From the NCBI GenBank assembly GCA_964494055.1, contig CAZBRI010000001.1, forward strand, positions 1 through 29,809: a DNA stretch of 29,809 nucleotides, in the 5' to 3' direction. The first letter of the stretch is position 1. Every line of letters starts with the position of its first letter. A program made the translations under genes and the position numbers. This DNA comes from an uncultured Anaerolinea sp. (GTDB lineage: Bacteria; Chloroflexota; Anaerolineae; Anaerolineales; Villigracilaceae). The notes beneath the pieces are model-generated. The model made no database searches, had not been told where the DNA came from, and was given only the letters and a program-made list of their open reading frames with translations. Shown here piece by piece: positions 1 to 29,138 of this stretch.

Positions 1-46
1 TACACGGCTCTGAACACTCTTTCCCTACACGACGCTCTTCCGATCT
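1..46 (+). other. Illumina TruSeq adapter remnant (assembly artefact): P5 tail TACAC + 8-nt i5 index GGCTCTGA + Read-1 primer
   Basis: 14-46 reads ACACTCTTTCCCTACACGACGCTCTTCCGATCT, the TruSeq Read-1 primer. 1-5 TACAC is the end of P5, and 6-13 GGCTCTGA is recalled as the D504 index. Confidence 0.98.
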
Positions 47-1080: not shown

Positions 1081-1143
1081 GGGGTTTTCTCCTTTTTTTA
1101 GCAACTCTTTTTAGTGAGGGTCTTATTTTTCCAAAATGCTGGA

Positions 1144-2007: not shown

Positions 2008-2104
2008 ATTTGTTCCTCCTGGTTATTTGGTCTGATCTTTTTTATCTATCTCTTTTTTGCCTGAACACAAATTTACGAGATACTAATAATTATCCCGGTA
2101 AACC

Positions 2105-2122
2105 TGTACTTACAGGATAACA
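2105..2122. promoter_or_regulatory. Putative GntR operator, copy 1 (TGTACTTACAGGATAACA)
   Basis: Matches the 18-mers at 2299 and 16196 and includes the palindrome CCTGTA-CT-TACAGG (2103-2116). Lies just downstream of the minus-strand -10 box. Confidence 0.7.
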
Positions 2123-2124
2123 TT

Positions 2125-2153
2125 ATTATAACGGTGAGTTTATTGTCTATCAA
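2125..2153 (-). promoter_or_regulatory. sigma70-type promoter of the leftward operon (TTGATA-17-TATAAT)
   Basis: On the minus strand, TTGATA at 2153-2148, a 17-bp spacer, then TATAAT at 2130-2125. Confidence 0.65.
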
Positions 2154-2263
2154 GTGTTAATTCAAATTCCATTGTCCTTTCCTTTTTACTTTCCAAAAAC
2201 ATCAAATTTTCGATGAGAATTATAAAAATAGCTCATGATTCGACACTTATTTGTCCATTTCCA

Positions 2264-2291
2264 TTGACACCGGTTACAATTTTGCTATAAT
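2264..2291 (+). promoter_or_regulatory. sigma70 consensus promoter of the gntR operon (TTGACA-16-TATAAT with extended -10 TG)
   Basis: TTGACA at 2264-2269, TG at 2283-2284, TATAAT at 2286-2291. Confidence 0.75.
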
Positions 2292-2298
2292 TACAAGT

Positions 2299-2316
2299 TG
2301 TAATAACAGGATTACA
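2299..2316. promoter_or_regulatory. Putative GntR operator, copy 2 (TGTAATAACAGGATTACA)
   Basis: 2295-2316 is 21/22 identical to 16192-16213. It overlaps the palindrome ATTACAA-G-TTGTAAT (2290-2304) and covers the expected TSS. Confidence 0.7.
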
Positions 2317-2344
2317 AGAAACCAACTTCCGGAGAATAACACTT

Positions 2345-3100
2345 ATGGGCGAAACAATTAAATTTGATAGCTATGTGCCTTATTACATTCAGTTAATGGA
2401 TATTCTCAAAGAAAAAATTCAACAAAAGACCTGGCAGCCCGGAGACCAGATTCCAGCGGAACAGGACCTTTGTGAACAATATGGCATAAGCCGTACTGTT
2501 GTCAGGCAGGCATTAAGAGAGATGGAACTTGAAGGTGCTATTAATCGCCGTAAAGGTAAAGGTACCTTTATTGCTATGCCAAAAATCAGTGAGGGCCTTG
2601 CTCAAAAACTGACTGGTTTTTACCAGGACATGATTGAACGTGGTCTTAAACCTGTTACAAAAGTTTTACATCAACTTGTTATTCCAGCCACTGAAAAGGT
2701 TGCCCAATTTCTCAATATCGAACCCGGTACAAAAGTGATCAAAATCCAAAGGCTCAGATATATCAACGATGAACCAATTCAAATGGTCACCACTTATTTG
2801 CCTTATGAGATCTGTCCTCAACTTGCTGAAGTCGATCTAACCAATCAATCCTTGTATCAATACCTGGAAAAAGAATGCGGTGTGTTTATTGCCAAAGGCC
2901 GCAGATACATTGAAGCTGTTCTGGCCAATGAGAATGAAGCTGCCCTGCTGGGTGTTGAAAAAGGGGCTCCGTTACTAATGTTAGACAGCATCAGTTTCTC
3001 TGGTACAGGACAACCACTTGAGTATTATCACGCATTGCACCGCGGCGATAGGTCCAGGTTTGAAGTCGAATTATGGCGTTCGCATGATTTAGAGAATTAG
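2345..3100 (+). CDS. GntR family transcriptional regulator, HutC subfamily (wHTH + UTRA)
   Basis: N-terminal PYYIQL...IPAEQDLCEQYGISRTVVRQAL...GKGTF wHTH. C-terminal UTRA-like domain (IQRLRYINDEP...EYYHALHRGDRSRF). Confidence 0.93.
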   Translation: MGETIKFDSYVPYYIQLMDILKEKIQQKTWQPGDQIPAEQDLCEQYGISRTVVRQALREMELEGAINRRKGKGTFIAMPKISEGLAQKLTGFYQDMIERGLKPVTKVLHQLVIPATEKVAQFLNIEPGTKVIKIQRLRYINDEPIQMVTTYLPYEICPQLAEVDLTNQSLYQYLEKECGVFIAKGRRYIEAVLANENEAALLGVEKGAPLLMLDSISFSGTGQPLEYYHALHRGDRSRFEVELWRSHDLEN

Positions 3101-3151
3101 GCTGTTATTTTTAATAACTAAAAACTTATTCAATACCTGTTGGAGAGTAGA

Positions 3152-4684
3152 ATGCAAAAAAAATACCTGGTTGGAGTTGACCTGGGAACAAGTGCAACAA
3201 AAGCCGCCATCTATCAAATAGATGGAACTTTAGTTGCTGAATCAATGATTGAAGTTCCTCTTGTACATCCAAAACCTGGTGTCGTCGAACAGAATAACGA
3301 CGATTTTTACACTACTGCTGCCCGGAGTGTAAAGCGCTGCATCGACTCAAGCGGTATCAACCCTTCTGAAATTGTAAGCATTGCATTCGATTCTCAAATG
3401 GCCGGTGTCGGTCTTGTTAATGAGGATTTTAAACCTGTCTCGCATTTTGACTCATGGCTGGACATGCGCTGCCAGCCGTTTATTGAATGGATGGACAAAG
3501 ACGCCGGGGAAAGAATCACTCAGCTCACAGGATGTCCTCCAACATGTGATCATGGTCCTAAAATGCTCTGGTGGAAACACGAACACCCTGATCTCTATAA
3601 TCAAACAGCCAAGTTCATTATGCCGGGTACTTATGTTGCCATTCGTGCATCGAGTTTAAAAACTGAAGATACGTTTATCGATCATACCTATATTCATTTT
3701 TCAGGGTTCAGTGATGCCAAAAATGGATCATGGTCAAAGGAACTATGTGATCAATTCGGTCTCGATATTGAAAAACTCCCAAAAATCGTAGATCCCTGTG
3801 ATATTGTCGGTGAATTATCTGAAAATGCAGCCCGGGAATTTGGGCTTCAACCGGGTACTCCTATAGCTGCCGGCGCTGGTGACACAGCAGCAAATGCCCT
3901 TGGTGCCGGAATAGTCAGAAATGGCATGTTGTTTGATGTTGCTGGAACAGCATCTGTATTAGCAGGCTGTACGAATCAGTATGTAGCAGACACTTCCAAC
4001 CGGGCACTACTAACCATGCGTTCTGTAATTCCAGGTTTATGGCACCCGCTTGCCTACATCGGAGGCGGAGGTCTGGCACTAAGATGGTTCCGGGATCAAT
4101 TTTTCAATACTAATTGCGGGTCTCTAAACCAGAACTCCGAAGAAATTTATGACAAGATGCTCTCAATGGCAGAAAATATCAACCCTGGTTCGGATGGGCT
4201 TTTCTTTTCTCCCCATCTGGGCGGACGTATCTGTCCATCCAACCCCGCCATGCGCGGTGCCTGGATTGGAGCATCCTGGTCTCATACCCAGGCTCACTTT
4301 TCCCGGGCCATCCTCGAAAGTGTTGCTTACGAGTATGCATATTATTTAAAGATCTTGAAAAGCCTGATCCCGGATCTTGAGCTGATACAAGCCAGGGTGA
4401 TTGGCGGCGGCGCTCGAAGTCGTTTTTGGAATCAAATTAAAGCAGACATCCTGAATGTTCCCACTCAAAAATTAAATGGCAGCGAATTTGGAACCTGGGG
4501 TTCAGCTATGATCGCTGGAAAAGCAGTTGGGGCAATCAAGGATCTTTCTTCCCATGCTGAAAACACTGCTGTTTTGAGCGGTAACGCGTGTGAACCCGGG
4601 AAGGCAAATCATGAGGTATATAAACCTTTAATTGAGAAATATATTTCATTACAACGTTTGTTGAATGAATTTTATTCAGCATAA
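3152..4684 (+). CDS. FGGY family carbohydrate kinase (xylulokinase-like)
   Basis: Motifs GVDLGTS, WLDMR, GAGDTAA, GERI/GGRICP and GGGARS. ATG at 3152 with GGAG upstream is preferred over the TTG at 3140. Confidence 0.9.
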   Translation: MQKKYLVGVDLGTSATKAAIYQIDGTLVAESMIEVPLVHPKPGVVEQNNDDFYTTAARSVKRCIDSSGINPSEIVSIAFDSQMAGVGLVNEDFKPVSHFDSWLDMRCQPFIEWMDKDAGERITQLTGCPPTCDHGPKMLWWKHEHPDLYNQTAKFIMPGTYVAIRASSLKTEDTFIDHTYIHFSGFSDAKNGSWSKELCDQFGLDIEKLPKIVDPCDIVGELSENAAREFGLQPGTPIAAGAGDTAANALGAGIVRNGMLFDVAGTASVLAGCTNQYVADTSNRALLTMRSVIPGLWHPLAYIGGGGLALRWFRDQFFNTNCGSLNQNSEEIYDKMLSMAENINPGSDGLFFSPHLGGRICPSNPAMRGAWIGASWSHTQAHFSRAILESVAYEYAYYLKILKSLIPDLELIQARVIGGGARSRFWNQIKADILNVPTQKLNGSEFGTWGSAMIAGKAVGAIKDLSSHAENTAVLSGNACEPGKANHEVYKPLIEKYISLQRLLNEFYSA

Positions 4685-4728
4685 CAGATCGTATCGATAA
4701 AGATAAAAGACAAAAACAGGAGTAGTTA

Positions 4729-5775
4729 ATGAAACAACAGGTTCGAATTTGTATGATTGGTGCCGGCAGAGTAGGGAAAAATCATTCCAGGGCTCTTACC
4801 CGCCATATTCCTAACGGAAAGATAGTTGCCCTTGTTGACCCAATGGCAGCAGTACGCGAAGAAACCGCTCGTGACTTTTCAATCGATAATCAATTTAACA
4901 GTATTGAAGAAGCCCTTGAAAAGGTTGAGTTTGAGGCAGTCATTATTACAACACCGACACCAACTCATCTGCCTCTTACAAGAATTGCAGCTGAAAACAA
5001 AAAACATGTTTTTCTTGAAAAACCAATGGCTCTCAACCTGGCTGAATGTGATGAAATAATTGAAGCTACTTCAAGACATTCTGTGATTTTGCAATTGGGA
5101 TTCATGCGTCGTTTTGATCCTGAATTTGTTGCAGCAGCAGAAAGAATACAGGCTGGTGAGATCGGAACCCCAATGATGATCAAGTCAAACACTCACGGCC
5201 CCGGACTTCCCCCGCCCTGGGCATGTGATCTTCGCACCTCCAACGGCATGCTGGCCGAAGTGAACAGCCACGATTGGGATACCACCCGCTGGCTGCTTGG
5301 ATCAAATTATTTGAGAGTCTACACAGAAGTTGCCAACTTTAAAGGTAAGGCAAATAATATTGATATCCCCAATTTCTACGACAATGTCCTGGTAAATATC
5401 AAATTTGAAAGCGGTGCACTCGGCCAAATTTCAGGGATATGCCCCTGTGGATACGGGTATGATGCAAGAGTTGAAATTGTCGGGGATAAAGGTATTATGC
5501 AGATTGGTGAACTGGCTGGACAATCCATCGTTGTCTGTACAAACAGGGACCAGGGTCTGATCACCCCAATTTACCGCACATGGCCGGAACGCTTTGCCTG
5601 GGCATATATTTACGAATTGGAACATTTTGTTGCTTGTGTACAAAATGAAACACACCCCAAAGCTGGCGGCTTTGATGGCCGCTGGGCTGTTGCCGGGGTC
5701 CTCGCCGGAACAAAATCCTTCCTGGAAGAACGCCCTGTGACCCTAAAAGAAATTTTAGACGCTGAAAAAAAATAA
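4729..5775 (+). CDS. Gfo/Idh/MocA oxidoreductase, myo-inositol 2-dehydrogenase (IolG)-like
   Basis: Motifs IGAGRVG, EKP, GFMRRFDP and EVNSHDWD. Confidence 0.88.
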   Translation: MKQQVRICMIGAGRVGKNHSRALTRHIPNGKIVALVDPMAAVREETARDFSIDNQFNSIEEALEKVEFEAVIITTPTPTHLPLTRIAAENKKHVFLEKPMALNLAECDEIIEATSRHSVILQLGFMRRFDPEFVAAAERIQAGEIGTPMMIKSNTHGPGLPPPWACDLRTSNGMLAEVNSHDWDTTRWLLGSNYLRVYTEVANFKGKANNIDIPNFYDNVLVNIKFESGALGQISGICPCGYGYDARVEIVGDKGIMQIGELAGQSIVVCTNRDQGLITPIYRTWPERFAWAYIYELEHFVACVQNETHPKAGGFDGRWAVAGVLAGTKSFLEERPVTLKEILDAEKK

Positions 5776-5787
5776 AGGTAAAAAATT

Positions 5788-6831
5788 ATGTTAGCTGCTG
5801 TTTATCATGGACCCAACGATCTGCGTGTTGAAAATGTTGAAATTCCAAAAATTACTACTGGTGAATTACTCGTCAAAGTGTTGAGTGCCAGTATTTGCGG
5901 TACTGATCTACGGATATTTCATGGAAATCACCGCATGTATGCCCCCGGTACCGTCCGGATCCCCGGTCATGAAGTGGTTGGAACCATAGCTGAAATTGGT
6001 GCAGGAATAACCAATTATTCTATTGGTCAGCGTGTCTTCTGCGCGCCAAATACTGGCTGTGGTCATTGTACCCAATGTGTTTCAGGAAACAATAATCTTT
6101 GCTCAAATTACGATGCGATCGGTGTTACATCCGACGGTGGTTTTGCTGAATATGTTCGCATTCCTGCCAATTCTGTACAACAGGGAAATATCATTCCCAT
6201 CAGTGAAACTGTCGATACAGCTGTTGCCGCTTTAATGGAACCATTTGCTTGTGTGTTGCGCGGGCAAAATGCATTAAACATGAAGCCCGGCGAGGTTGTC
6301 CTTGTCATCGGTGCCGGCCCGATTGGTATCATGCATGCCAAACTTGCCCGAGCCCGTGGTGCCGGCCGCGTCCTAGTCAGTGAACCGATCGCAGAAAGAG
6401 CCATCCAGGCCAGGCGAATGGGAGCAGACAGGGTAATCGATCCGGTAAACGAAAACTTGAAGACAGCAGTCCTCGAAGAAAGTAACGGACGAGGAGCAGA
6501 TCTGATCATAGTTGCTGCGCCAGTCCATGTTGCCCAGGAACAGGCTCTCGATCTGGCCGCCATTGGCGGAAGAATTAATTTTTTTGGCGGGTTACCAAAA
6601 GATAGACCCGCCATCAATTTCGATTCCAACATTGTCCATTACAGGGAACTGATCATTACTGCAACAACCGCCTGCAGCACCGCTGATTGCTGGCAGGCAG
6701 CCCGGATCGTCAATTCAGGCCTGGTTGATCTTTCAGATATTGTCAGCCAACGCTTTCCACTCAATAAAGCTGTAGAAGCATTTACAGCCGCTGAGGACAG
6801 AAAATCTTTAAAAATTGTTTTGGAGCCCTAA
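5788..6831 (+). CDS. Zn-dependent medium-chain (polyol/sorbitol-type) dehydrogenase
   Basis: Catalytic-zinc motifs ICGTD and GHE, structural-zinc motif CGHCTQC..NLC, EP, and Rossmann GAGPIG. Confidence 0.92.
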   Translation: MLAAVYHGPNDLRVENVEIPKITTGELLVKVLSASICGTDLRIFHGNHRMYAPGTVRIPGHEVVGTIAEIGAGITNYSIGQRVFCAPNTGCGHCTQCVSGNNNLCSNYDAIGVTSDGGFAEYVRIPANSVQQGNIIPISETVDTAVAALMEPFACVLRGQNALNMKPGEVVLVIGAGPIGIMHAKLARARGAGRVLVSEPIAERAIQARRMGADRVIDPVNENLKTAVLEESNGRGADLIIVAAPVHVAQEQALDLAAIGGRINFFGGLPKDRPAINFDSNIVHYRELIITATTACSTADCWQAARIVNSGLVDLSDIVSQRFPLNKAVEAFTAAEDRKSLKIVLEP

Positions 6832-6837
6832 CATCAG

Positions 6838-7800
6838 ATGACCTCACATTCTGACTTCCCAATACCGCGGCCAGTGATGACGGTTTTGGGTCCCGTATCA
6901 TATGAGCATCTTGGAATCACTGATGCCCATAACCATCTCTGGATCGAGCCGGTTGATGGTGCAGACAAAAATGCCCCGGTTTTAACTGATTACAATGCGA
7001 TCGTTAAAGAATTGGTGGAATACCGAAGCGATGGGGGAGCTTCAATATTAGACTGTCAGCCAACGGGCTGCGGCCGAAATGGAAATAAACTTTTCACCCT
7101 TTCAAAAGAAACCGGTATAAACATTATTGCAAGTACTGGTTTCCACCGAAAGAAATATTATGCTCCAGATCACTGGATGTTTAAAAATAACTCACAGCAA
7201 TGTTACGATCTGTTTCTCAAAGAGATTCAGGAAGGATTGATCGAAACAGCTGAAACTTCCAACCCGGTTCTTGCCGGCTTTGTAAAAGTTGCAGTAGAAC
7301 AAAATTGGGCAGATTGTTCAAGGGATGCGCTTGATGGAGCAGCCGAAGCAGTAATACAAACTGGGGTTGTTATGGAAATCCATACTGAAAAAGGCGCACT
7401 CGCCGAAAAAGTCAGCCTGTACCTGTGCGATAAAGGCGTGTCACCAGGTCAGTTGGTTTTTTGCCATATGGATAAGCGGCCCGATTTGGGTCTGCATAAA
7501 GAACTTGCCCGGCTCGGTGTACTTCTTGAGTACGACACTTTTTTCCGTCCGAAATATAACCCGGAAGAAACGCTCTGGCCGCTGATCACGCAAATGGTTG
7601 TTGCCGGTTTCGCCGAGAGTATTGCTCTCGCTACAGATATGGCAGAATCCGAATCATATCATTTTATCGGCGGGGGTCCTGGTCTTGCCAGTTTCCCCTC
7701 CAAAATTCAAAAGAGATTAATTGAAAATGAAATTCCGGGTAAAGCAAGAACTCACTTATTGGGCGGTAATATCGCTCGAAGGCTGTCCGGGATTAAATAA
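6838..7800 (+). CDS. Phosphotriesterase-related amidohydrolase (PTE/Php family; likely lactonase)
   Basis: N-terminal VMTVLGPV...LGITDAHNHL (HxH), STGFH, bridging K (GFVKVA), H (IHTE), H (CHMD) and D (LATD). Confidence 0.88.
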   Translation: MTSHSDFPIPRPVMTVLGPVSYEHLGITDAHNHLWIEPVDGADKNAPVLTDYNAIVKELVEYRSDGGASILDCQPTGCGRNGNKLFTLSKETGINIIASTGFHRKKYYAPDHWMFKNNSQQCYDLFLKEIQEGLIETAETSNPVLAGFVKVAVEQNWADCSRDALDGAAEAVIQTGVVMEIHTEKGALAEKVSLYLCDKGVSPGQLVFCHMDKRPDLGLHKELARLGVLLEYDTFFRPKYNPEETLWPLITQMVVAGFAESIALATDMAESESYHFIGGGPGLASFPSKIQKRLIENEIPGKARTHLLGGNIARRLSGIK

Positions 7801-7818
7801 TTTATTTGGAGAAAATAC

Positions 7819-8403
7819 ATGTTAGATGTACCTTTTAGTTTTATTTTGCCCATGCCTCAAGTGATCCCTTCCAGGGTAGACAATCATATCCAGCGCAGAT
7901 TATCTGCATTAAAAGGTCAGTTTTCTGACCAGGCAGCTTACAAATCAATGCTTGATCTTGAAGACCAATTGATCTATGAAGTGTATGAGATCAAACGACC
8001 AGAAGTTGAAGGGGAACTTTTAATGGGAATTTCCATTGTGCACCCCGGAAAAGTTGGGAATGAATTTTTTATGACAAAGGGTCATTTTCATTCTGTTTTG
8101 GAAACTTCAGAAATATATTACTGTATGCGTGGTGAAGGATATATGGTTATGGAAACTCCAGAAGGTGATACTTCTGTTGAGCGTTTATCCCCCGGTCAAA
8201 TACTTTATGTTCCCCCTCGATGGGCTCACCGCAGCGTTTGTACATCCAGGCAGGAAGACCTTGTTACATTCTTCGCATACCCTGCCAACGCAGGCCACGA
8301 TTATGGAACCATTGAAACACAGGGCTTTAAGAAAATTGTTATTGACGGACAAAACGGCCCGCTGATCATTGATAACCCTCGCTCCCTGAATCGGGGGGCA
8401 TGA
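7819..8403 (+). CDS. Cupin-type (archaeal-like) glucose-6-phosphate isomerase family protein
   Basis: Motifs PGKVGNEFFMTKGHFH, EIYY..GEG, PPRWAH and GHDYGTI, as in Thermococcales cupin PGI. Confidence 0.88.
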   Translation: MLDVPFSFILPMPQVIPSRVDNHIQRRLSALKGQFSDQAAYKSMLDLEDQLIYEVYEIKRPEVEGELLMGISIVHPGKVGNEFFMTKGHFHSVLETSEIYYCMRGEGYMVMETPEGDTSVERLSPGQILYVPPRWAHRSVCTSRQEDLVTFFAYPANAGHDYGTIETQGFKKIVIDGQNGPLIIDNPRSLNRGA

Positions 8404-9368
8404 TGGATCTGAAAAAATGCCGTGTACTGGTTACGCCTACATCGTATGGGAAAAATGATGCCAGGCTGAAAACCGAATTGGAAGCACAAGTTGGTGAAGT
8501 AATTTACAATCCGACTGGTAAACCTCTCTCTTCAAAAGATGTTGCGTCCCTGATCAAAGGGGTGGATGGTTATATTGCCGGTTTGGATGTTATTGATGAA
8601 GAAGCCTTAAAAAACGCAGATAAACTCAAGGTGATCTCGCGTTATGGCGTTGGTGTGGACAGTGTTGACCTGAAAGCAGCCGCTGCCAGGGGAATCACAG
8701 TCACAAATACCCCTGGGGCAAATTCTGTTTCAGTCGCCGAACTCGCTCTCGGAATGATTTTATGTCTTGCACGACAAATCCCTGAAGCTGATAAAGCGGT
8801 TCATGAAGGAAAATATCCACGCCTTACAGGTGTCAGCCTGGAAGGAAAAACAATAGGAATTCTTGGCCTTGGTGCTATTGGTAAACAGCTTGCCCGGCGC
8901 CTGTCCGGTTTTGACTGCCGGATAATCGCTTACGATCCATTTCCAGATATGACATTTGCGGAAAAAAACCAGGTGAAATTTGCATCTTTGAGTGAAGTTG
9001 CTGCACAGGCTGATTTTTTAAGCCTTCATCTTCCATTACTGCCTGAAACAAAACTGCTTGTCAATGAAACATTTTTATACAAGATGAAAAAAGGTTCCTG
9101 CCTGGTCAATACATCCCGCGGGGAAGTAGTGGACGAAACAGCTTTATTTAATGCCCTTCAAAGCGGTCAAATTAAAGGAGCTGGCCTGGATGCTTTTTCT
9201 GTGGAACCGCCAGACCCATCCAATCCCCTGCTCTCTTTGCCGCAGGTAATCGCAACACCTCACCTAGGTGCACAGACGGATGGTGCAACCAGTAACATGG
9301 GATGGTTTGCCATGAAAGATTGCCTGTCAGTATTAAAAAATGAACAACCTGTTTACAAGGTTGCCTGA
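8400..9368 (+). CDS. D-isomer-specific 2-hydroxyacid dehydrogenase (phosphoglycerate-dehydrogenase-like, no ACT domain)
   Basis: Motifs SRYGVG, NTPGANSVSVAE, GLGAIG, NTSRG and TPHLG. ATGA overlap with the upstream gene. Confidence 0.92.
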   Translation: MMDLKKCRVLVTPTSYGKNDARLKTELEAQVGEVIYNPTGKPLSSKDVASLIKGVDGYIAGLDVIDEEALKNADKLKVISRYGVGVDSVDLKAAAARGITVTNTPGANSVSVAELALGMILCLARQIPEADKAVHEGKYPRLTGVSLEGKTIGILGLGAIGKQLARRLSGFDCRIIAYDPFPDMTFAEKNQVKFASLSEVAAQADFLSLHLPLLPETKLLVNETFLYKMKKGSCLVNTSRGEVVDETALFNALQSGQIKGAGLDAFSVEPPDPSNPLLSLPQVIATPHLGAQTDGATSNMGWFAMKDCLSVLKNEQPVYKVA

Positions 9369-9392
9369 GAATTTCTGTTTTCGGAGTGAAAA

Positions 9393-10037
9393 ATGAATAA
9401 ACTTGATGTATTGGAAAAAGTTAAAGAATTAGGTTTGCTGGCAGTTATCAGGGGTCCATCACCGGAACTAACAGTAAAAATGGTTGAAGCCCTGGTCAAT
9501 GGCGGTGTATTAGGGATCGAAATCACTTACAGTACCCCGAATGCTGAGGAAGTTGTGACAACTCTCTCAAAAAAATTTGGGGACAGTATCGTGCTTGGCA
9601 TGGGAACATTAACAAGTCCCAGCCAAGTACAAACAGCCCGGGCTGCCGGCGCAAATTTTTTAGTCAGCCCAATCTGTGAACCAACACTTGTTAAAGCAAT
9701 GGCAGAAAGCGGTTTGCTCTGTATGGCAGGAAGCCTGACACCGACCGAGGTTTTTCAGGCGTACACTCTTGGTGCCGATGTTGTTAAGATATTTCCGGGG
9801 TCACTCGGTGGTCCGGCTTATGTAAAAGCTCTCAAGGGTCCATTCCCCCAGATCCCTATGATGCCAACCGGTGGTGTGAATGCCGGCAATATGGCTGAAT
9901 GGTTCGCCACCGGGGTTGTAGCGGTAGGTGCTGGCAGTGAATTATGTCCGCCGCAGCTTGCCAAAGATGGAAAATTCGATGAAATATCCAAACGGGCTGC
10001 TGATTTTGTGCAGGTCGTTAATGCTTCCAGGAAATAA
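9393..10037 (+). CDS. eda: KDPG/KHG aldolase family (2-keto-3-deoxy-phosphogluconate aldolase-like)
   Basis: Motifs LAVIR, IEIT (catalytic Glu), GMGT, VKIFP (Schiff-base Lys) and MPTGGV. Confidence 0.9.
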   Translation: MNKLDVLEKVKELGLLAVIRGPSPELTVKMVEALVNGGVLGIEITYSTPNAEEVVTTLSKKFGDSIVLGMGTLTSPSQVQTARAAGANFLVSPICEPTLVKAMAESGLLCMAGSLTPTEVFQAYTLGADVVKIFPGSLGGPAYVKALKGPFPQIPMMPTGGVNAGNMAEWFATGVVAVGAGSELCPPQLAKDGKFDEISKRAADFVQVVNASRK

Positions 10038-10051
10038 TAAAAGGAGTAAAA

Positions 10052-11029
10052 ATGAACAGCAGTATGAACGTTACCAGCCCGCATTATCCAATCGTCACAA
10101 AAAATGTCCCTACATTTTATTTCATCGGCGTAACGACCGGGAAATCATCGATCATGAAAGTCTTTCCACTATGGATGAAAGTCCTCGGCCGTGAAGAAGT
10201 TATCATGGAAGGTATGGATCGAAAAATTCATGATGAAAGAGATGCTTATAGAAGTGCCGTTGCACAGATCAAGTACGACCCGATGTCATTAGGTGCACTG
10301 GTTACCACCCACAAAATTGATTTATTAACTGCTTCCAGGGATATGTTTGATTATCTTGATCCCTATGCCCTCCTTACCGATGAGGTTTCAAGCATTTCGA
10401 AACTGGATGGCAGGCTCGAAGGACATGCAAAAGACCCGCTTACATCAGGTGCCAGCCTGGATGCGATTATTGAAAAAGACTATTTTGGTAAAACAAACGG
10501 GGATGTATTATCTTTTGGGGCGGGGGGTTCTGCCATCGCCACCCTGCTGCATTTGATCAACAAAAAAGACAAAGGCGACCGCCCAAAAAAGTTTACACTC
10601 GTCAATCGCTCACAGGGGCGTTTGGATCACGCCCGCAGCATGGTTAGTTCTTTGAAAACAGACATTGAAATTGAATATATCTGCAATTCAGATCCCAAAG
10701 TTAATGACGCCATCATGGAAAAATTCCCGCCATACAGTGTGATTATCAATGCAACAGGCATGGGGAAAGATACCCCTGGATCCCCGATCACCTGGGAAGG
10801 AAAATTCCCGATGCACAGCCTCTCATGGGAATTTAATTACCGTGGAGAACTTGATTACCTTCATCAATCACTCGCCCAGGTGGAAAGCCGGAATATTAAA
10901 GTCGAAGATGGCTGGTTATACTTTGTCCATGGTTGGACACAGGTTGTAGCTCAGGTACTGCACGTTGACCTGACACCTGAATTATTTGATAAATTAAACC
11001 AGGCAGCTTCCACCGTACGCGGTAAATAA
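10052..11029 (+). CDS. Divergent shikimate-dehydrogenase-fold NAD(P) oxidoreductase
   Basis: Motifs VTTHK (cf. AroE VTxPxK), GHAKD (cf. GxNTD), FGAGGSA, VNRS and INATGMG. Confidence 0.75.
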   Translation: MNSSMNVTSPHYPIVTKNVPTFYFIGVTTGKSSIMKVFPLWMKVLGREEVIMEGMDRKIHDERDAYRSAVAQIKYDPMSLGALVTTHKIDLLTASRDMFDYLDPYALLTDEVSSISKLDGRLEGHAKDPLTSGASLDAIIEKDYFGKTNGDVLSFGAGGSAIATLLHLINKKDKGDRPKKFTLVNRSQGRLDHARSMVSSLKTDIEIEYICNSDPKVNDAIMEKFPPYSVIINATGMGKDTPGSPITWEGKFPMHSLSWEFNYRGELDYLHQSLAQVESRNIKVEDGWLYFVHGWTQVVAQVLHVDLTPELFDKLNQAASTVRGK

Positions 11030-20209: not shown

Positions 20210-20245
20210 AAAACCTGCAGAGTCAAATTTGACTCTGCGGGTTTT
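20210..20245. terminator. Bidirectional intrinsic terminator between the OYE gene and herA
   Basis: Perfect 22-bp palindrome GCAGAGTCAAATTTGACTCTGC (20217-20238) flanked by AAAACC / GGTTTT. Confidence 0.75.
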
Positions 20246-20265: not shown

Positions 20266-21963
20266 TCAAAAGCCAATGTTCTTCAGGATCGATAACTCGC
20301 TATTTTGGCTCTTATCACCCAGTAATTCACGCCAGAAATTGGCGTCATAACGCCTGGATTTGATGGGAAGCGGCATGGGAACACCCCAGCCCAACAACAG
20401 GACTTCCTCTTTTGGCTGCAGGCGTGCCAGCATGCCCTGTATCGCTTCCCTGCCGGAAAGACCTGACAGCACAGCGTGGATATCATCATCATCACCGAGC
20501 CATCCGCTGATGCGGGTCCCAAGCTGTGACATTACCTCGTCATAGATCTGCGATGGCCGCTGATCAACGATCATCAAAGTAACGTAATATTTGCGTAATT
20601 CCCTGGCGATTGTGGCAAAAGTTGTTTGTGAAGCCATTTCACGATTGAGTATCTTATGTGCCTCCTCCACAACAATGACCAGCGGACGGGGTTCGTGTGT
20701 TCCATGCGCACGGAAAAAATTCGTACTTTTTTCCCATGCTTCCCGGATGTGCCGGGTCAATAAATTTGATACCAGCAAATAATCCAGGTCACTTTCATGA
20801 TCCCCAAATGAAAGCACCACATGCTGCCCGGCTTCCAGTGCTCGAATAATTTCTGAGATTCCATCAGAAGCGGGCTTCTCTACAATGTAAGATTTTCCAA
20901 AAAGGCGGCGAAGTTTATCATGCAGTGCTTCCGCCGCCATTATATTAACGCCGTTTTCTTCTGCCCAATGTGCAACACTGCCTTCAGCCGGCACTTTTTT
21001 CAACTTACCTTTTTCGTCTGCGGCCTCTACTTCATCCCGGTTCATGGCTTTGAACTTTGCAAACCATTCTGACTTGAAGGAGTTATACAAAGCATTCAGG
21101 GTTGTTGGGGTAGTTTCCTTCAGGTTTAATTCTTTCGAGAGCATTTCAACATCAATTGAAGAAATATCTTTCATAGCTATCTCAAGATTAAAATCCGGTG
21201 TTTGATTGCTGCGGATCTTTGCTCCTGCACCCAGCCCGACAACTTTTACCCTGGACTGAAATTTGGTTTTAAGACCTATGACCGGCATTTTTGTATCGGA
21301 TGCAACATCATCAAACCCATATTCGTTATGCATATCCAACACCAGAACAGATGCCTTGTTGTAATTCATTAACCCTGCCAGGATCAAACGGGTGAGAAAT
21401 GATTTCCCTGTCCCGGTCGCGCCAAAAACACCTGATGACCGTTGAATGAATTTATCAAGGTCGATACAAACCGGGTGTCCCTGTTCCCTGGTGTACCCAA
21501 TTATAAAATTACCCTCTTTTTCCGGGTCACCAAATATCATGGCTATATCTTCCGCTCCTGCCATATTTACCGGGGCATGATGCAGCGGCACAGTTTTTAC
21601 CGGCCTCGGACGCGGGTCTTCCTGGAGCTGCGACCGCCATTTTTTATACTCCGGGGAGGCCGGATCCGGTCCTCTCTCCAGCATTAATGCAGGCAGTATC
21701 TTCATATTTGTAAATAACGTCTGACCAAATAATGCTCTTGCCAGCGCTGGGGATAGACGGGTCTCTGATTGTTCATCTGCAAAACGTGGATCCGTTGAAC
21801 CCAATTGAAGATCTGTTGCCAGGCCGTAAAAACGATAATTTCCGCTGTCAATGACTACGAAGCCACCTTCCTGTACATCCAGCGGACTGACTGTCAGGCG
21901 GGCAGAAAAGGAATCCTTTAAACCACCGCCGATGATATACCCGATCTGTTGATTATCTGCCAT
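20266..21963 (-). CDS. herA: HerA/FtsK-superfamily ATPase (HerA helicase/translocase with N-terminal HAS barrel)
   Basis: Walker A GATGTGKS, DMHNEYG, Walker B VIVVEEAH, ARELRKY and DQRPS. N-terminal beta-rich barrel. ATG at 21963 with AAGGAG RBS. Confidence 0.9.
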   Translation of the reverse strand: MADNQQIGYIIGGGLKDSFSARLTVSPLDVQEGGFVVIDSGNYRFYGLATDLQLGSTDPRFADEQSETRLSPALARALFGQTLFTNMKILPALMLERGPDPASPEYKKWRSQLQEDPRPRPVKTVPLHHAPVNMAGAEDIAMIFGDPEKEGNFIIGYTREQGHPVCIDLDKFIQRSSGVFGATGTGKSFLTRLILAGLMNYNKASVLVLDMHNEYGFDDVASDTKMPVIGLKTKFQSRVKVVGLGAGAKIRSNQTPDFNLEIAMKDISSIDVEMLSKELNLKETTPTTLNALYNSFKSEWFAKFKAMNRDEVEAADEKGKLKKVPAEGSVAHWAEENGVNIMAAEALHDKLRRLFGKSYIVEKPASDGISEIIRALEAGQHVVLSFGDHESDLDYLLVSNLLTRHIREAWEKSTNFFRAHGTHEPRPLVIVVEEAHKILNREMASQTTFATIARELRKYYVTLMIVDQRPSQIYDEVMSQLGTRISGWLGDDDDIHAVLSGLSGREAIQGMLARLQPKEEVLLLGWGVPMPLPIKSRRYDANFWRELLGDKSQNSELSILKNIGF

Positions 21964-22048
21964 ATTAAACTCCTTCAAATTTCTATTTAATTCAATCCTT
22001 TTGTTTTCCGATTTTGTTCATAATTAATTTACTAAGAAAAACCTGAAT

Positions 22049-22645
22049 TTATGTAATGTCCTTCAAAGCACCCAGTACACTCATCAATGCAGGATAATCA
22101 TCCCTGAGCAGTGTGATCAGTTCCCTTGTAGCAGCCTCCAGCCAGGTATCTCCATCATGATCATGTGCGAGGCTGCTTTGCTGCAAATGTGCAGCTAATA
22201 TTTCACCAGCCGGGATATCCTGTGCCCTGAGAATATGACGAAAATAACCAAAATTTCCAGCATCTGAAAATCGTTCAATTTCCTGATCATCACATAAAAA
22301 TATTTTATCCAGGCTGAATGGCGGATAAGGCGGCAGAAAGTGATAAATTATTCCAGCTTTTTCGTATCCAATAGAAATAACCGACATTTCCACCGGTACG
22401 ATCCTGTTTTGCCGGTTATCTTTGATCACTTCTTCGCTGACATTATTCGCTGTAACCAGCTGTTTAACCAATCCATCATCATCGATGCGAATGTCATGGA
22501 TAAGTCCATAAACTGCATATTCTGTATTCACCGGGGCACGTACCAGTGCTCCAAAGGACGGCATTTCAAATTGAGATACTGCACAACCCGCCACAAAACC
22601 AGTTGTTCCCGCTCGAAGTAATCGACCTATTTCGTATGTAGGCAT
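22049..22645 (-). CDS. Stand-alone HAS-barrel-like protein with helical C-terminal region
   Basis: N-terminus IGRLL...PSFGALVR...VYGLIHDIRI parallels the HerA N-terminus (IGYII...EGGFVVI...FYGLATDLQL). Located between nurA and herA. Confidence 0.7.
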   Translation of the reverse strand: MPTYEIGRLLRAGTTGFVAGCAVSQFEMPSFGALVRAPVNTEYAVYGLIHDIRIDDDGLVKQLVTANNVSEEVIKDNRQNRIVPVEMSVISIGYEKAGIIYHFLPPYPPFSLDKIFLCDDQEIERFSDAGNFGYFRHILRAQDIPAGEILAAHLQQSSLAHDHDGDTWLEAATRELITLLRDDYPALMSVLGALKDIT

Positions 22646-22671
22646 AAACTCTCCTTTATAAAAGCCAAAAT

Positions 22672-23877
22672 TTATTTATATGAAGTTCTTCCCTGCCGAT
22701 TTTTAGCAGATTGTTTTCCTGAGATAACGTCAATTTCAATTCCGCTTTTTCTCATTTCAATTGACAACATTTGATCGACCTGATCTTTTTCCGCCATTGT
22801 AACAACCGCACACTCATGTGCCCTGTGCAGTGAATATGGAAATGGACTGGCTCCCATAATTCTGCATTGTTGAACAAGAACCATATGCAGCAGGTTAATT
22901 TTTTCGGGATCACGGGCCACCCAGTCCGGAATATCCACCCGGCTGATTTGTGGATTTGCTTCATTTATTCCTGTATTCAAATAAAAAAAATGAAGCGTGA
23001 TATCACCAGTGTAAAATTTTTGGGAAGCAGATTGAAAACCAAAAACTGCAGATCTTTCCCCTGGTTTAAGCAAAGGATCATTAACTCTTCCAAACAACCA
23101 GCGGTCAGTTACTCTTCCTAATGGATGTTCTTTTTTGGGGTCCTTTTGACCGCTTCCATTTATCAAAGATAACTCAAGTGATCGAACAACAAGATCCGCT
23201 GATGGTTTATCAATATATCCTGCAGCTATTGCACCCACCGACCTTGTGTTTTGTAAAATTGAGAGATAATCCTTCAGACTTTTCTCAAACTCCCCGCCTT
23301 CTTCTCCCTCTCTTGCTCCCCACAATTCAATCGGGCCGTCTGTAATAGTAATTACCTGGTTATTTTCTCCGCTGAATTCCTTTGAAAGTTGGAAAAGAAC
23401 GGAACGCTCTTCAAGATCTCGTTTGAGTGATAACATTCCGTCGGATAATGGATAACCATTTGATGTCTCCAATTGATCATCAAAAAGTAATCCACTTTGT
23501 GTTCGAATGATCGGCGCTTCACCGCTTTCCATTTTATAAATAATTGCCCCGATATTGATCAATCCATAATGAACCGCATTATGCCTATCCGGAAAGATCT
23601 GTGAACCATCCGCCGCGATCAGCGTAACACTTACCGGAACTTCCACCGGTAAAACATGAAAATCCATTGCTTCTGTTTCCGGACGAGCACATCGAAGACT
23701 AGTATCTGACTCACTCCTGTTTTTAATTTTCTCAATCAATAATTCAGGCTGACCCGCGTATTGTTTAAAAAGCATTCGAGCAAGCGTTCTCTGCTGATCA
23801 AGATCAGTTTTTCGTACTAAAGCACTTGTACCAATTTTTTTTATCGTTATAGAAACTTGTTGAAAATCTAATGACAT
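22672..23877 (-). CDS. nurA: NurA family nuclease (RNase H-like fold)
   Basis: Motifs AADGSQIFPDRH, ITDGPI, GYIDKP, RVDIP and PYSLHRAHE. Adjacent to herA. Confidence 0.87.
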   Translation of the reverse strand: MSLDFQQVSITIKKIGTSALVRKTDLDQQRTLARMLFKQYAGQPELLIEKIKNRSESDTSLRCARPETEAMDFHVLPVEVPVSVTLIAADGSQIFPDRHNAVHYGLINIGAIIYKMESGEAPIIRTQSGLLFDDQLETSNGYPLSDGMLSLKRDLEERSVLFQLSKEFSGENNQVITITDGPIELWGAREGEEGGEFEKSLKDYLSILQNTRSVGAIAAGYIDKPSADLVVRSLELSLINGSGQKDPKKEHPLGRVTDRWLFGRVNDPLLKPGERSAVFGFQSASQKFYTGDITLHFFYLNTGINEANPQISRVDIPDWVARDPEKINLLHMVLVQQCRIMGASPFPYSLHRAHECAVVTMAEKDQVDQMLSIEMRKSGIEIDVISGKQSAKNRQGRTSYK

Positions 23878-26693: not shown

Positions 26694-26723
26694 AAATGAT
26701 CCTTCAAATAAGAAGGATCATTT
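26694..26723. terminator. Hairpin between the convergent yitT and era genes (probable terminator)
   Basis: Perfect 12-bp inverted repeat AAATGATCCTTC / GAAGGATCATTT with a 6-nt loop. It overlaps the era stop codon. Confidence 0.55.
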
Positions 26724-27632
26724 TTTCTTCTTTGTTTCGATCTTATAACCAAATCTTCTTAAGGATGATTCATCATCCCGCCAGTCTTTTTCAACCTTAA
26801 CATGCAGCTCCAGGTATACTTTTCGGCCGCTCATCGATTCGATCTCCTGCCGGGCGGTTATCCCGATCTTTTTCAGCATAGTCCCGCCTTCACCGATCAT
26901 AATTCCTTTTTGCGACTCGCGCTCAACGAAAACGGTAGCAACAATATGAGCACCTTTATCCCCGCGTTCGGTAAATTCATCAATCCTAATATTTACACCA
27001 TGCGGTACTTCATTCCGCAAATGGATCAGGCAGGCTTCACGAACCAGTTCGGCGGCAATTTCTCTTTCATAAAAATCGGTGATCTGTTCACTGTCAAATT
27101 CAGGTTCACGGATGGGCATTCTTTCAATCAAAGCCTGGAGTAATTCATTCCGTCCTTCACCGCGTGTTGCGCTTAAAGCAAAGACCTCAGAATTTTTTAC
27201 CAAATCCGCATAGATAGCGATTTTTCCGGGGATTTCATCCGGTGAGATCATATCCACTTTGTTGACTGCAATAAATACCGGGGCTCGTTTTTTCATCTGC
27301 ACCAGGGTTGCAGCGATCCGCTGATCATCCTCGGTCGGACCTTCAGCTGCATCCACCATCCACAAGATCAGATCGACCTGTTTCATAGCATCTTCAGCTT
27401 CTTGATTTAAAAATTCTCCGAGCTTATGATGCGGGTTGTGAATCCCAGGCGTATCCAGGAATACAAGCTGGTATTGATCGGTGGTCAGAATACCCATCTG
27501 CCTGCGGCGGGTAGTTTGTGCCTTTGGAGTAACGGCAGCAATTTTTTGGCCAAGAAATGCATTGACCAGTGTGGACTTTCCAACATTCGGGTGCCCGATG
27601 ATGGAGATAAAACCAGATTTTTTTTCTGTCAT
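26718..27632 (-). CDS. era: GTPase Era
   Basis: G1 GHPNVGKST, G2 QTTR, G3 DTPG, G4 NKVD, and KH domain (SQKGIMIGEGG...VYLELHVKV). ATG at 27632 overlaps the upstream TGA (ATGA). Confidence 0.96.
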   Translation of the reverse strand: MTEKKSGFISIIGHPNVGKSTLVNAFLGQKIAAVTPKAQTTRRRQMGILTTDQYQLVFLDTPGIHNPHHKLGEFLNQEAEDAMKQVDLILWMVDAAEGPTEDDQRIAATLVQMKKRAPVFIAVNKVDMISPDEIPGKIAIYADLVKNSEVFALSATRGEGRNELLQALIERMPIREPEFDSEQITDFYEREIAAELVREACLIHLRNEVPHGVNIRIDEFTERGDKGAHIVATVFVERESQKGIMIGEGGTMLKKIGITARQEIESMSGRKVYLELHVKVEKDWRDDESSLRRFGYKIETKKKK

Positions 27633-28501
27633 TTTTTCTTCCAATTTACTACTGCAATAGATGAGATGATCAGGATCGCTCCAGATGCAAGCTGCCAGGA
27701 CAACTGTTCATGCAGGAAAATTACACCAAGCAGAACGCCTCCCAGTGGAAATATGTAGGTAACCAATGTTGCCCGGGTCGGGCCGATCTCATGCACAAGA
27801 TAATACTGCATGATCATGGCCAACCCGGTTCCAAGAACCCCCAGCCAGATCAAAGCTACCCAGGTGATCGGCAGGTGTGGAATTACGATTGGTGATTCAA
27901 AAGCAGGGGCTGCCACAAACATGACAGCACTTGCACTGAACAATGGCAGCATACCGCGGATTTGTCCGGGGACTTCTGCAGTATGCATTCTTGCATAAAT
28001 ATAACTGTATGAATAGAACATTGAAGCAACGATTACAGCAGCCTGCCCTATGATCGAATTCTGCGAATCAGGTTTTAAGTCTTTACTAAGCAGCAAAACA
28101 ACACCGGCAAAACCAATTAACAAACCGGTCAACTTTGATACACTGATCTTATCGTCCTTCAGCAGGAAATGCGCCAGGATGACAGTAAAAAGCGGCACGG
28201 TTGCATTTAATATGGAAGCGACCGCTGAATCAATGCTTTGTTCGCCCCAGGTGATCAAGAAAAAAGGCACAGCAACATTGATCACACCTAGAACAATGAA
28301 AATTTTCCAGGTTTTCCAATCTTTTGGTAACTGGATTTTTAAAATTAACGCAACGACAATTCCCGTAAGTAACCCAAAAATCACACGGTAAGCAACCAGG
28401 GTTATGGGTCCAACCTCATTCAGTGCGATCTTGATCCAGAGAAAGGAAGCGCTCCAAATAGCGCCTAATAAAATAAACACGGTCCAATGTTTTGAATGCA
28501 A
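27629..28501 (-). CDS. EamA/DMT family transporter (two EamA repeats)
   Basis: Motifs WSASF, about 10 hydrophobic segments, ILNATVPLFT and IGPTRA. Confidence 0.92.
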   Translation of the reverse strand: MHSKHWTVFILLGAIWSASFLWIKIALNEVGPITLVAYRVIFGLLTGIVVALILKIQLPKDWKTWKIFIVLGVINVAVPFFLITWGEQSIDSAVASILNATVPLFTVILAHFLLKDDKISVSKLTGLLIGFAGVVLLLSKDLKPDSQNSIIGQAAVIVASMFYSYSYIYARMHTAEVPGQIRGMLPLFSASAVMFVAAPAFESPIVIPHLPITWVALIWLGVLGTGLAMIMQYYLVHEIGPTRATLVTYIFPLGGVLLGVIFLHEQLSWQLASGAILIISSIAVVNWKKK

Positions 28502-28622: not shown

Positions 28623-29138
28623 TCAGGGAATGATCAACCCCTCCAGCGCTAACAACCATTTTTTCGTCTCAAGACCATTCCCAGCACTGTACCCATGCAG
28701 CTTGCCGTCAGCTCCAAGGACCCTGTGACAAGGAATAACAATGGGTATCGGGTTGTCTGCTTCCGCCCGTCCCACTGCCCGTGCAGCACCAGGATGGCCG
28801 ATAGCGTTTGCAATGTCTTTATATGTTCTTATCATCCCAAAAGGAATATCGATCGTTGAACTGAGTACCTTTTGTTGAAAGATTCCCATGAAAGTCCAAT
28901 CGATTTCCAGGCTGAATTTTTTCCGCTGACCAAGAATATATTCTTCTATTTCAACAGCGGCATGTTCAATTTTTTTCTGATCAAGTGTAATCAGGCCGGT
29001 ATATTTTTTTTGTAATTTTTCACAAAAATCCATTTCCGATGCCGGAAACGAAATAGATGCCAGGCCATTCTCAGATACTGCAACCCATATTTCACCGAGA
29101 ATTGTTTTTTGTGTATGTCCAATGGATAACATAGTCAA
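28623..29138 (-). CDS. ogt: Methylated-DNA--protein-cysteine methyltransferase
   Basis: Motifs IPFG..RTY..IA..IG.P.AARAVG and active-site NPIPIVIPCHRV. Confidence 0.93.
   Translation of the reverse strand: MTMLSIGHTQKTILGEIWVAVSENGLASISFPASEMDFCEKLQKKYTGLITLDQKKIEHAAVEIEEYILGQRKKFSLEIDWTFMGIFQQKVLSSTIDIPFGMIRTYKDIANAIGHPGAARAVGRAEADNPIPIVIPCHRVLGADGKLHGYSAGNGLETKKWLLALEGLIIP

Follow-up and report, generated by a model that had tools for sequence, protein, structure and literature searches.

A stand-alone HAS-barrel protein encoded between nurA and herA in Anaerolineae is probably the third component of a bacterial machine for DNA-break repair

Introduction

Why should a bacterial chromosome carry, between the genes for the nuclease NurA and the translocase HerA, a further gene whose product looks like a free copy of the domain on which NurA docks? 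The question is raised by a stretch of 29,809 nucleotides (nt) from an uncultured Anaerolinea sp. (contig CAZBRI010000001.1), which as a whole is called the window in this study, and by a 198-residue protein encoded there, which is named Mid. HerA is a hexameric translocase of double-stranded DNA, and NurA is a nuclease that docks on its ring of HAS barrels in the archaeal and Deinococcus complexes; the pair constitutes the archaeal route to the 3' overhangs used in homologous recombination. In bacteria its role is poorly understood, and to our knowledge the studies made to date concern only Deinococcus and Thermus. In this study, the sequence, the predicted structure and the gene neighbourhood of Mid were analyzed, and the results suggested that Mid is probably the third part of a bacterial machine for the repair of DNA breaks.

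Results and Discussion

Mid as a HAS-barrel protein

The three genes and the two parts of Mid are located in the window as follows.

22672..23877, minus strand: nurA, encoding a 401-residue NurA-family nuclease, the first gene of the operon (open reading frame list and Pfam)
22049..22645, minus strand: mid, the middle gene, encoding 198 residues (open reading frame list)
22295..22645, minus strand: Mid residues 1-117, the predicted stand-alone HAS-barrel domain (AlphaFold2 model, Foldseek and PF09378 matches of relatives)
22049..22294, minus strand: Mid residues 118-198 and the stop codon, a predicted five-helix bundle with the motif ELIxLLRDDYxxL (separate model)
20266..21963, minus strand, counted from the ATG: herA, encoding a 565-residue HerA hexameric translocase/ATPase that itself carries a HAS barrel at the N-terminus (Pfam)

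An earlier note, made from the letters of the window, had described three co-oriented genes with gaps of 26 and 85 nt. The open reading frame list bore this out, with 26 nt between nurA and mid and 85 nt between mid and the ATG of herA (70 nt if herA is opened at a TTG).

The PF09378 HAS-barrel family describes the N-terminal barrel of HerA and of the F1/V1 ATP-synthase subunits. As judged from sequence, the likeness of Mid to the N-terminus of HerA was marginal: Mid scored 12.4 bits against PF09378 (gathering score 25.2; expected value, E, 0.18) over residues 28-54 only, and a sequence and profile search of Mid against PDB sequences returned nothing relevant. Alignment of the Mid family with the N-termini of the cognate HerA proteins by hhalign gave P values of 2e-4 to 2e-3 over 28-51 columns, which cover the hairpin G-x-(F/L)-V...(Y/F)-Y-G-L-(I/V)-x-D-(I/L). 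An AlphaFold2 model of Mid, built on 25 diverse homologues, reached a predicted local distance difference test score (pLDDT) of 92.6 and a predicted template modelling score (pTM) of 0.87. In the model, residues 4-117 form a beta barrel (strands 4-12, 16-21, 34-40, 43-54, 85-96, 99-101 and 114-117) into which two helices are inserted at 58-79, and residues 120-197 form five helices. Foldseek, which the earlier note had proposed as a check for the HAS fold, placed HerA-family chains at all 50 of the 50 best matches in PDB (E 1.7e-6 to 3.8e-4; 118-163 aligned columns; query TM score 0.36-0.51), and the predicted barrel superposed on the N-terminal domain of HerA. These matches included the NurA-HerA complexes 9x1m and 9x1l, the Deinococcus HerA 7wrw, the Thermococcus HerA-NurA complex and the Sulfolobus HerA; the closest structural matches of the barrel were 9c1m, 8zir, 8wod and 8wfd, which are HerA chains of anti-phage systems.

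The relatives of Mid pointed in the same direction. PF09378 was matched at E<=1 by 10 of 25 diverse relatives (best 6.9e-5), and no other Pfam family recurred among them. Two distant relatives exceeded the Pfam cut-off of 25.2, namely those of loci L104 (28.5 bits, profile positions 6-89 of 90) and L113 (28.1 bits). Moreover, many members of the distant branch carried a precomputed PF09378 match, and some had been named 'HAS barrel domain' automatically, so the HAS-barrel fold of the family is not new. Because the structure and the relatives add to the weak sequence match, the likeness is lifted well above chance, and on the strength of its predicted structure and of the Pfam matches of its relatives Mid can be regarded as a real HAS-barrel protein. 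The earlier claim that the N-terminus of Mid mirrors the HAS barrel of HerA thus stood for the fold, while in the sequence of the window alone the likeness stayed marginal.

The rest of the protein sets Mid apart from HerA. Its 198 residues contained no Walker A motif and gave no DUF87 or AAA match, and the C-terminal part (118-198), modelled separately, formed a five-helix bundle (pLDDT 93.6, pTM 0.81); Mid is thus not a HerA, and the helical tail free of ATPase motifs that had been read from the letters was recovered in the model. The bundle found no significant relative in PDB (best Foldseek E 3.9), and the whole model found no match among the BFVD viral structures. The bundle motif ELIxLLRDDYxxL was kept in distant relatives (LLRDDY at 179-184), an LPPxPP loop was conserved at residues 104-109, and an invariant acidic loop, I54-D55-D56-D57-G58, directly followed the strand that aligned with beta-4 of HerA. 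Mid is acidic overall (median isoelectric point, pI, 5.3) and is therefore no obvious DNA binder.

The NurA and HerA of the window

The 401-residue protein matched the Pfam NurA domain over residues 85-359 (E 8.5e-10; 39 bits against a cut-off of 21), and no PDB sequence matched it at E<=0.01. D90 (in DGS), E157, D180, D258, R352 and E355 (the last two in RAHE, 352-355) were at least 95% conserved in 63 homologues; from general knowledge of NurA, D90, E157, D180, D258 and RAHE presumably form the catalytic site. The domain above the Pfam cut-off and the conserved acidic residues identify the protein as NurA.

In the 565-residue protein, Pfam recognised a HAS barrel (residues 7-67; 25.4 bits, with the cut-off at 25.2), a DUF87 core (E 3e-29, 103 bits) and a HerA_C region scoring 20.1 bits, below the cut-off of 22. 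Walker A GxxGxGKS (G181-S188), Walker B EE(A)H (E433, E434) and a DQRP motif around R469 were invariant in seven homologues, and the DQRP motif is taken to hold the arginine finger, on the general pattern of ASCE ATPases. All matches among PDB sequences were HerA-family ATPases, TdpA included (best 2.6e-18). With HAS barrel, DUF87 core, Walker A and B, DQRP motif and HerA C-terminal region the protein is a HerA; no HerA subfamily was assigned, since it did not reach the equivalog cut-offs of the NCBIfam models for repair and antiphage HerA alike. The invariant HerA motifs and the conserved acidic residues of NurA suggest that both enzymes look active.

Conservation of the order nurA-mid-herA

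The locus surveys covered at most 80 loci each, and the counts are to be read as samples, not censuses. A survey of GTDB with one genome per species and the HerA alignment as the query yielded 80 loci of the class Anaerolineae, among them those of the cultured Levilinea saccharolytica, Leptolinea sp. HRD-7, Thermanaerothrix solaris and Flexilinea flocculi. In 66 of the 80 loci, Mid preceded herA and shared its strand; of the other 14, six had 5 kb of upstream sequence and neither nurA nor mid, and eight were too short to judge. The nurA gene was visible in 61 of the 66 loci and was cut off by the contig end in five, and the order nurA-mid-herA was kept in all 61. This neighbourhood survey had been called for in the earlier note, and the middle gene turned out to be conserved between its two partners. 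In the contexts of Mid homologues ranging from 75% down to 26% identity, nurA lay upstream in 9/9 and herA downstream in 7/9, with unrelated flanks (the downstream fragment of L005 had no HerA match, and the contig of L004 begins too late to show nurA). Furthermore, among about 75 loci with nurA visible, none had nurA beside herA without Mid, and the Deinococcus-type arrangement, in which nurA directly adjoins herA and no further conserved subunit is present, was found neither in the window nor in the roughly 75 related loci.

Across these loci, identity to the proteins of the window always fell from HerA through Mid to NurA, with 60-82% for HerA, 57-69% for Mid and 37-50% for NurA in one comparison and typical values of 72/67/49% in L001 and 65/53/37% in L055, which indicates that Mid is constrained as strongly as its partners are. 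The junction between nurA and mid was tight, with a spacing of at most 150 nt in 47 of 61 loci and a 4-nt stop/start overlap in about 26/56.

The closeness of nurA and mid also bears on a different reading, in which Mid would be a decoy or anti-nuclease that occupies the HerA-binding face of NurA and holds the nuclease inactive as long as neither HerA nor a DNA end has displaced Mid. Such a negative regulator would fit the HerA-like barrel seen by Foldseek and the fact that nurA and mid are the tightest pair while mid and herA are often interrupted; it would also fit the dependence of NurA activity on docking at the HAS face in known complexes (PMC9960219). We nevertheless consider it unlikely, because NurA alone is weakly active in known systems, so that the need for an inhibitor is not evident, and because neither conservation on a par with that of the motor nor an additional conserved helical domain would be expected of a pure inhibitor.

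Several side observations were made on the spacers. In Anaerolineales, insertions of 0.5-3.3 kb of unrelated genes are concentrated between mid and herA (L016-L020, L023, L027, L028, L031, L032 and L062; e.g. L018:1693-4890). The cargo of this hot spot included PDDEXK_3 proteins (GxxExxY), four-helix-bundle proteins of the 23S-rRNA-IVP type, a UDG-superfamily protein, metallophosphoesterases, toxin-antitoxin pairs, an N6/N4 DNA methyltransferase of about 300 residues (10 loci), a class-I S-adenosylmethionine-dependent methyltransferase and a GT87 protein. Insertions between nurA and mid were seen in few loci (L003:5300-6004, L067:3517-4254, L072:2872-3479 and L077:2688-3748): in L003 and L067 the insert encoded a predicted membrane protein of 234-245 residues without a Pfam match (26% identity to each other), and in L072 and L077 it was a small pair resembling a toxin-antitoxin module. 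On the 3' side of herA, nine Anaerolineae loci had a 411-residue open reading frame on the opposite strand (e.g. L045:7440-8675), whose N-terminus resembled, by eye, the large subunit of exodeoxyribonuclease VII (XseA). In one long-read assembly (L002:7160-8820) herA was broken into out-of-frame pieces, while it was intact in the near-identical L001; assembly errors are a more likely cause than a pseudogene.

The link to mre11-rad50 beyond Anaerolineae

More distant loci were collected by a metagenome scan with two distant HerA proteins followed by a hidden Markov model (HMM) search, in which the triad appeared in a minority of loci. In L108 and L124, (nurA)-mid-herA was followed by a Metallophos gene of about 410 residues and then by an SbcC/Rad50-like gene of about 855 residues, with overlapping stops and starts. 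In the Rad50-like gene, AAA_23 and SbcC_Walker_B domains were recognised, together with a weak match to the Rad50 zinc hook. The same series was found in L113, where the contig ends within the rad50-like gene; in L104 the contig ends within the mre11-like gene, and L009 had an mre11-like gene only, after an inserted hydrolase gene. Three further contexts came from a profile search with this distant branch, and their gene identities were confirmed with purpose-built HMMs: L172, assigned to Eremiobacterota, read nurA-mid-herA-mre11-rad50, L173 (Armatimonadota) read nurA-mid-herA, and L174 (a 1.35-Mb contig with a GC content of 68%) read nurA-mid-herA-mre11-rad50-uvrD, with 4-nt overlaps through all five genes. 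Taken together, the taxa named for the nurA-mid-herA loci were Chloroflexota, Eremiobacterota and Armatimonadota, with Mid identity down to 26-30%; the module is not confined to the lineage of the window and occurs in at least three phyla.

In the 29.8-kb window itself, no Metallophos or SbcC-like gene (mre11 or rad50) was found, in agreement with the earlier note. Since mre11-rad50 directly follows herA in distant relatives, this absence is a feature of the window and not of the system. An arrangement of the archaeal four-gene type, in which nurA and herA stand with mre11 and rad50, was present in L108, L124, L172 and L174 and not in the window.

The five-gene operons with overlapping stops and starts (L108, L113 with rad50 cut, L124, L172 and L174, the last adding uvrD) raise the possibility that Mid is a bridge whose barrel sits on the HerA collar and whose bundle recruits Mre11-Rad50 (SbcCD) or RecA, SSB or UvrD to a five-protein resection machine. 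A helical bundle without a known fold relative could be a dedicated interaction module, and archaeal Mre11 is reported to bind HerA (PMC2288612). This reading appears improbable, because the window and most Anaerolineae loci are without nearby mre11/rad50 and Mid is still kept there.

Related HerA proteins without nearby nurA or mid mostly formed a separate subclade. By average linkage, 47 loci fell into one cluster in which Mid was never seen nearby; 34 of these were judgeable upstream and 13 were too short. In this large subclade (L094-L171, e.g. L119, L130 and L142) neither nurA nor mid lay within 5 kb of herA, and the neighbours were varied and included glutathione S-transferase-like and sigma-factor-like genes.

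The Mid family itself is large. Its homologues fell into 5454 clusters when grouped at 90% identity and, at E<=1e-3, into 456 when grouped at 50%, nearly all 190-215 residues long and annotated 'hypothetical', with no Pfam domain in the initial search; 24 columns of the alignment were at least 95% conserved. The profile search with the distant branch returned 2112 proteins, whose source names, being annotations of metagenome-assembled genomes, included Chloroflexota, Candidatus Eremiobacterota and Armatimonadota. These figures weigh upon the view that mid is left over, without function, from a partial duplication of herA, or is an unrelated passenger gene without a role in NurA-HerA. Mid does resemble the N-terminus of the neighbouring herA, and unrelated genes do insert into the operon. 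Nevertheless, the homologues number thousands, are intact and constant in length and share these conserved columns; the gene keeps its position across three phyla at 26-30% identity, and the folded model is confident. The remnant is thus scarcely credible and already disfavoured.

Long calls that contained Mid (P0128, P0144, P0159, P0168 and others) were considered as domain fusions and rejected, as they looked like frameshifted or chimeric gene calls. In P0268, a 315-residue call on a short contig and itself a fragment, the C-terminal part of NurA was in frame with the N-terminal part of Mid in an apparent read-through, either as a fusion or through a sequencing or assembly error. No Rosetta-stone argument is made from the sequences of these long proteins.

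Chromosomal location and the question of defence

The surroundings of the operon are those of an ordinary chromosome, with a GntR/UTRA sugar-catabolic cluster, oxidoreductases, a SIMPL gene divergent from nurA, YitT, Era and Ogt. The SIMPL-nurA arrangement was kept in 14-16 loci with SIMPL identity down to 36%, and this kept synteny argues for vertical inheritance. A tblastn search with Mid gave no match among 72,556 plasmids or 50,697 phage records, and no defence island was found in the window flanks. The module is chromosomal and non-mobile.

The HerA of the window counted anti-phage HerA models among its top PADLOC and NCBIfam matches (PDLC04105, 2.9e-33; NF042943, 3.2e-21), the DNA N6/N4 methyltransferase lies between mid and herA in 10 related loci, and AbiJ/DpnI genes lie downstream in L003. 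These observations would fit a triad acting in anti-phage or anti-plasmid defence like SIR2-HerA or DUF4297-HerA, with NurA as the effector and Mid as a sensor or regulator. However, the NCBIfam antiphage scores were 61-76 bits against equivalog cut-offs of 800-850, and the archaeal repair HerA model scored the same; PADLOC gave no match for NurA or Mid and generic models only for HerA. Moreover, the locus is a syntenic part of the core genome and seems to have been inherited vertically throughout the class, tblastn found no plasmid or phage copy, relatives link it to mre11-rad50, and the window flanks are housekeeping genes. A defence function is thus very improbable, and membership in a defence system was rejected on the lack of a dedicated effector match, the HerA scores below cut-off, the core synteny and the absence of mobile copies.

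Regarding the flanking genes, positions 1-11029 of the window encode a GntR/UTRA regulator, an FGGY kinase, GFO/IDH/MocA and Zn-ADH oxidoreductases, a PTE-family hydrolase, a cupin-type glucose-6-phosphate isomerase, a 2-hydroxyacid dehydrogenase and a KDPG aldolase; this sugar-catabolic cluster is unrelated to the nurA-mid-herA finding. The Era GTPase (26718-27644, minus strand) and the O6-methylguanine-DNA methyltransferase Ogt (28623-29138, minus strand) lie 3-5 kb from the operon, and Ogt was the only other DNA-repair gene among the 20 flanking genes scanned.

Expression signals of the operon

The signals read from the sequence around the three genes are the following.

22651..22656, minus strand: Shine-Dalgarno AAGGAG, separated by 5 nt from the start codon of mid and within the nurA-mid spacer
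21970..21975, minus strand: Shine-Dalgarno AAGGAG, separated by 6 nt from the start codon of herA (ATG at 21963) and overlapping the stretch that follows directly on the TTG at 21978
20210..20245: perfect 16-bp hairpin AAAACCTGCAGAGTCAAATTTGACTCTGCGGGTTTT, with A and T runs on either side (terminator scan)

The open reading frame list opens herA at the TTG at 21978 (570 residues), and the ATG at 21963 gives 565 residues. Because AAGGAG precedes this ATG and the N-termini of HerA homologues read MA(I/E)N, the ATG at 21963 and not the TTG is taken as the real start of herA. The hairpin sits between the herA stop and a convergent Oxidored_FMN gene and is likely, from its sequence, to be a bidirectional terminator that closes the operon; the terminator scan found nothing comparable inside the nurA-mid or mid-herA spacers. 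A promoter scan returned fewer sites than in shuffled sequences and is thus uninformative. The sequence was detected in freshwater and lake metagenomes.

Comparison with known systems

In the archaeal systems (herA-mre11-rad50-nurA operon; Sulfolobus, Pyrococcus, Thermococcus) a HAS-barrel HerA translocase is likewise paired with NurA, mre11 and rad50 homologues adjoin the genes as they do in distant relatives of the window locus, and the barrel of Mid was placed on the Thermococcus and Sulfolobus HerA by Foldseek. The gene order differs, with nurA first in the bacterial module, and we know of no archaeal herA operon with a stand-alone HAS-barrel gene. The characterised archaeal complexes are described with HerA and NurA as the only components, at 6:2 (PMC3326311), whereas the bacterial module adds a HAS-barrel protein of 190-245 residues, encoded between nurA and herA. 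Deinococcus radiodurans NurA-HerA (7wrw; PMC9960219) resembles the window module as a bacterial chromosomal nurA-herA operon, and NurA docks there on the HAS-barrel face by way of an acidic patch on HerA (PMC9960219). In contrast, the Deinococcus system is a two-gene operon with a two-component complex, and the window module has a third gene between the two. The HerA of the window missed E 1e-3 against Deinococcus HerA by sequence, which places it in a different HerA lineage.

The anti-phage HerA systems (SIR2-HerA, DUF4297-HerA and TdpAB) contain the HerA chains that best match the barrel of Mid structurally, and an effector sits on the HAS face of their HerA. The window differs in having NurA as the effector, with no SIR2, DUF4297 or TdpB-type protein, and in its syntenic core-genome locus; a stand-alone HAS-barrel subunit was absent from the literature and PDB entries compared for these systems. 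Mid shares its fold with the PF09378 proteins at large, but the characterised ones carry the barrel as the N-terminal domain of a P-loop ATPase, while Mid has the barrel alone with an unrelated helical bundle, and its Anaerolineae subfamily lies below the Pfam cut-off. A full-text literature search found no paper on a stand-alone HAS component or on a Chloroflexota system, with Iyer et al. 2004, which defined the HAS barrel, outside its coverage; this agrees with the earlier note, to whose author no biochemical characterisation of such a component was known. What is new is therefore not the fold. It is the obligate place of the protein in the nurA-mid-herA(-mre11-rad50) module and the three-component machine that this implies.

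Proposed role of Mid

The HAS barrel is the surface of HerA on which NurA docks, and six such barrels form a collar that docks the NurA dimer at 6:2 (PMC3326311; PMC9960219); removal of the barrel, or mutation of the Deinococcus acidic patch D78/E80/D81, abolishes NurA binding (PMC3326311; PMC9960219). The third-subunit reading is best supported, since Mid is by its predicted fold a copy of this docking domain, appears to be co-translated with NurA and always occurs with nurA in this herA lineage. The three genes may thus encode a bacterial NurA-HerA module for DNA-end resection that has a third subunit, a free copy of the HAS docking domain fused to a private five-helix bundle without an ATPase. 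Made together with NurA, Mid would bind through its barrel at the interface between NurA and the HerA collar, would control when and how the NurA dimer loads on the HerA hexamer and might couple the pair to Mre11-Rad50. From the analyses combined here, it seems rather likely that Mid is a dedicated third subunit at this interface, acting as an assembly adaptor or a gatekeeper for nuclease loading.

Several observations weigh against such a subunit. HerA has a complete HAS barrel of its own, and the second one is left without explanation; moreover, the Deinococcus and archaeal complexes work as two components. NurA, Mid and HerA are all acidic in net charge and pI, so that simple charge complementarity, or ionic docking of the Deinococcus kind, is not transferable to them. 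The mid-herA junction is loose, with more than 600 nt of unrelated genes inserted in 16 of 66 loci, and six loci (L025, L030, L046, L075, L089 and L091) have 5 kb upstream of herA without nurA or mid. In addition, the one metatranscriptome from the same sample had no contig on the sequence. As for the six loci, loss, relocation or a larger insertion could explain them, and the upstream open reading frame of L030 (928 residues) resembled leucyl-tRNA synthetase by eye.

The third subunit may also take a more elaborate form, in which Mid would make a ring of HAS barrels stacked coaxially on the HerA collar. Such a ring would add a gated chamber that resolves the mismatch between the 6-fold symmetry of HerA and the 2-fold symmetry of the NurA dimer, with the helical bundle tethering Mre11-Rad50. 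This stoichiometry is speculative and, in our judgement, doubtful. The decoy, the Mre11-Rad50 bridge and the second HAS ring are three variants that cannot be separated here. If the stacked ring were true, the modules of a whole bacterial HerA-NurA lineage, found here in at least three phyla, would work as resection machines built from more than two components, and their architecture would be one that neither archaea nor Deinococcus has shown.

Conclusion

In conclusion, a large bacterial lineage, with thousands of sequences from Anaerolineae, other Chloroflexota, Eremiobacterota and Armatimonadota, always carries an extra, strongly conserved protein with this system, and a family annotated 'hypothetical protein' is hereby given a name and a context. 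Mid provides a handle on how the loading of a nuclease on a ring translocase is controlled, and leaving Mid out when NurA-HerA of these groups is reconstituted may lead to failure or to misleading results.

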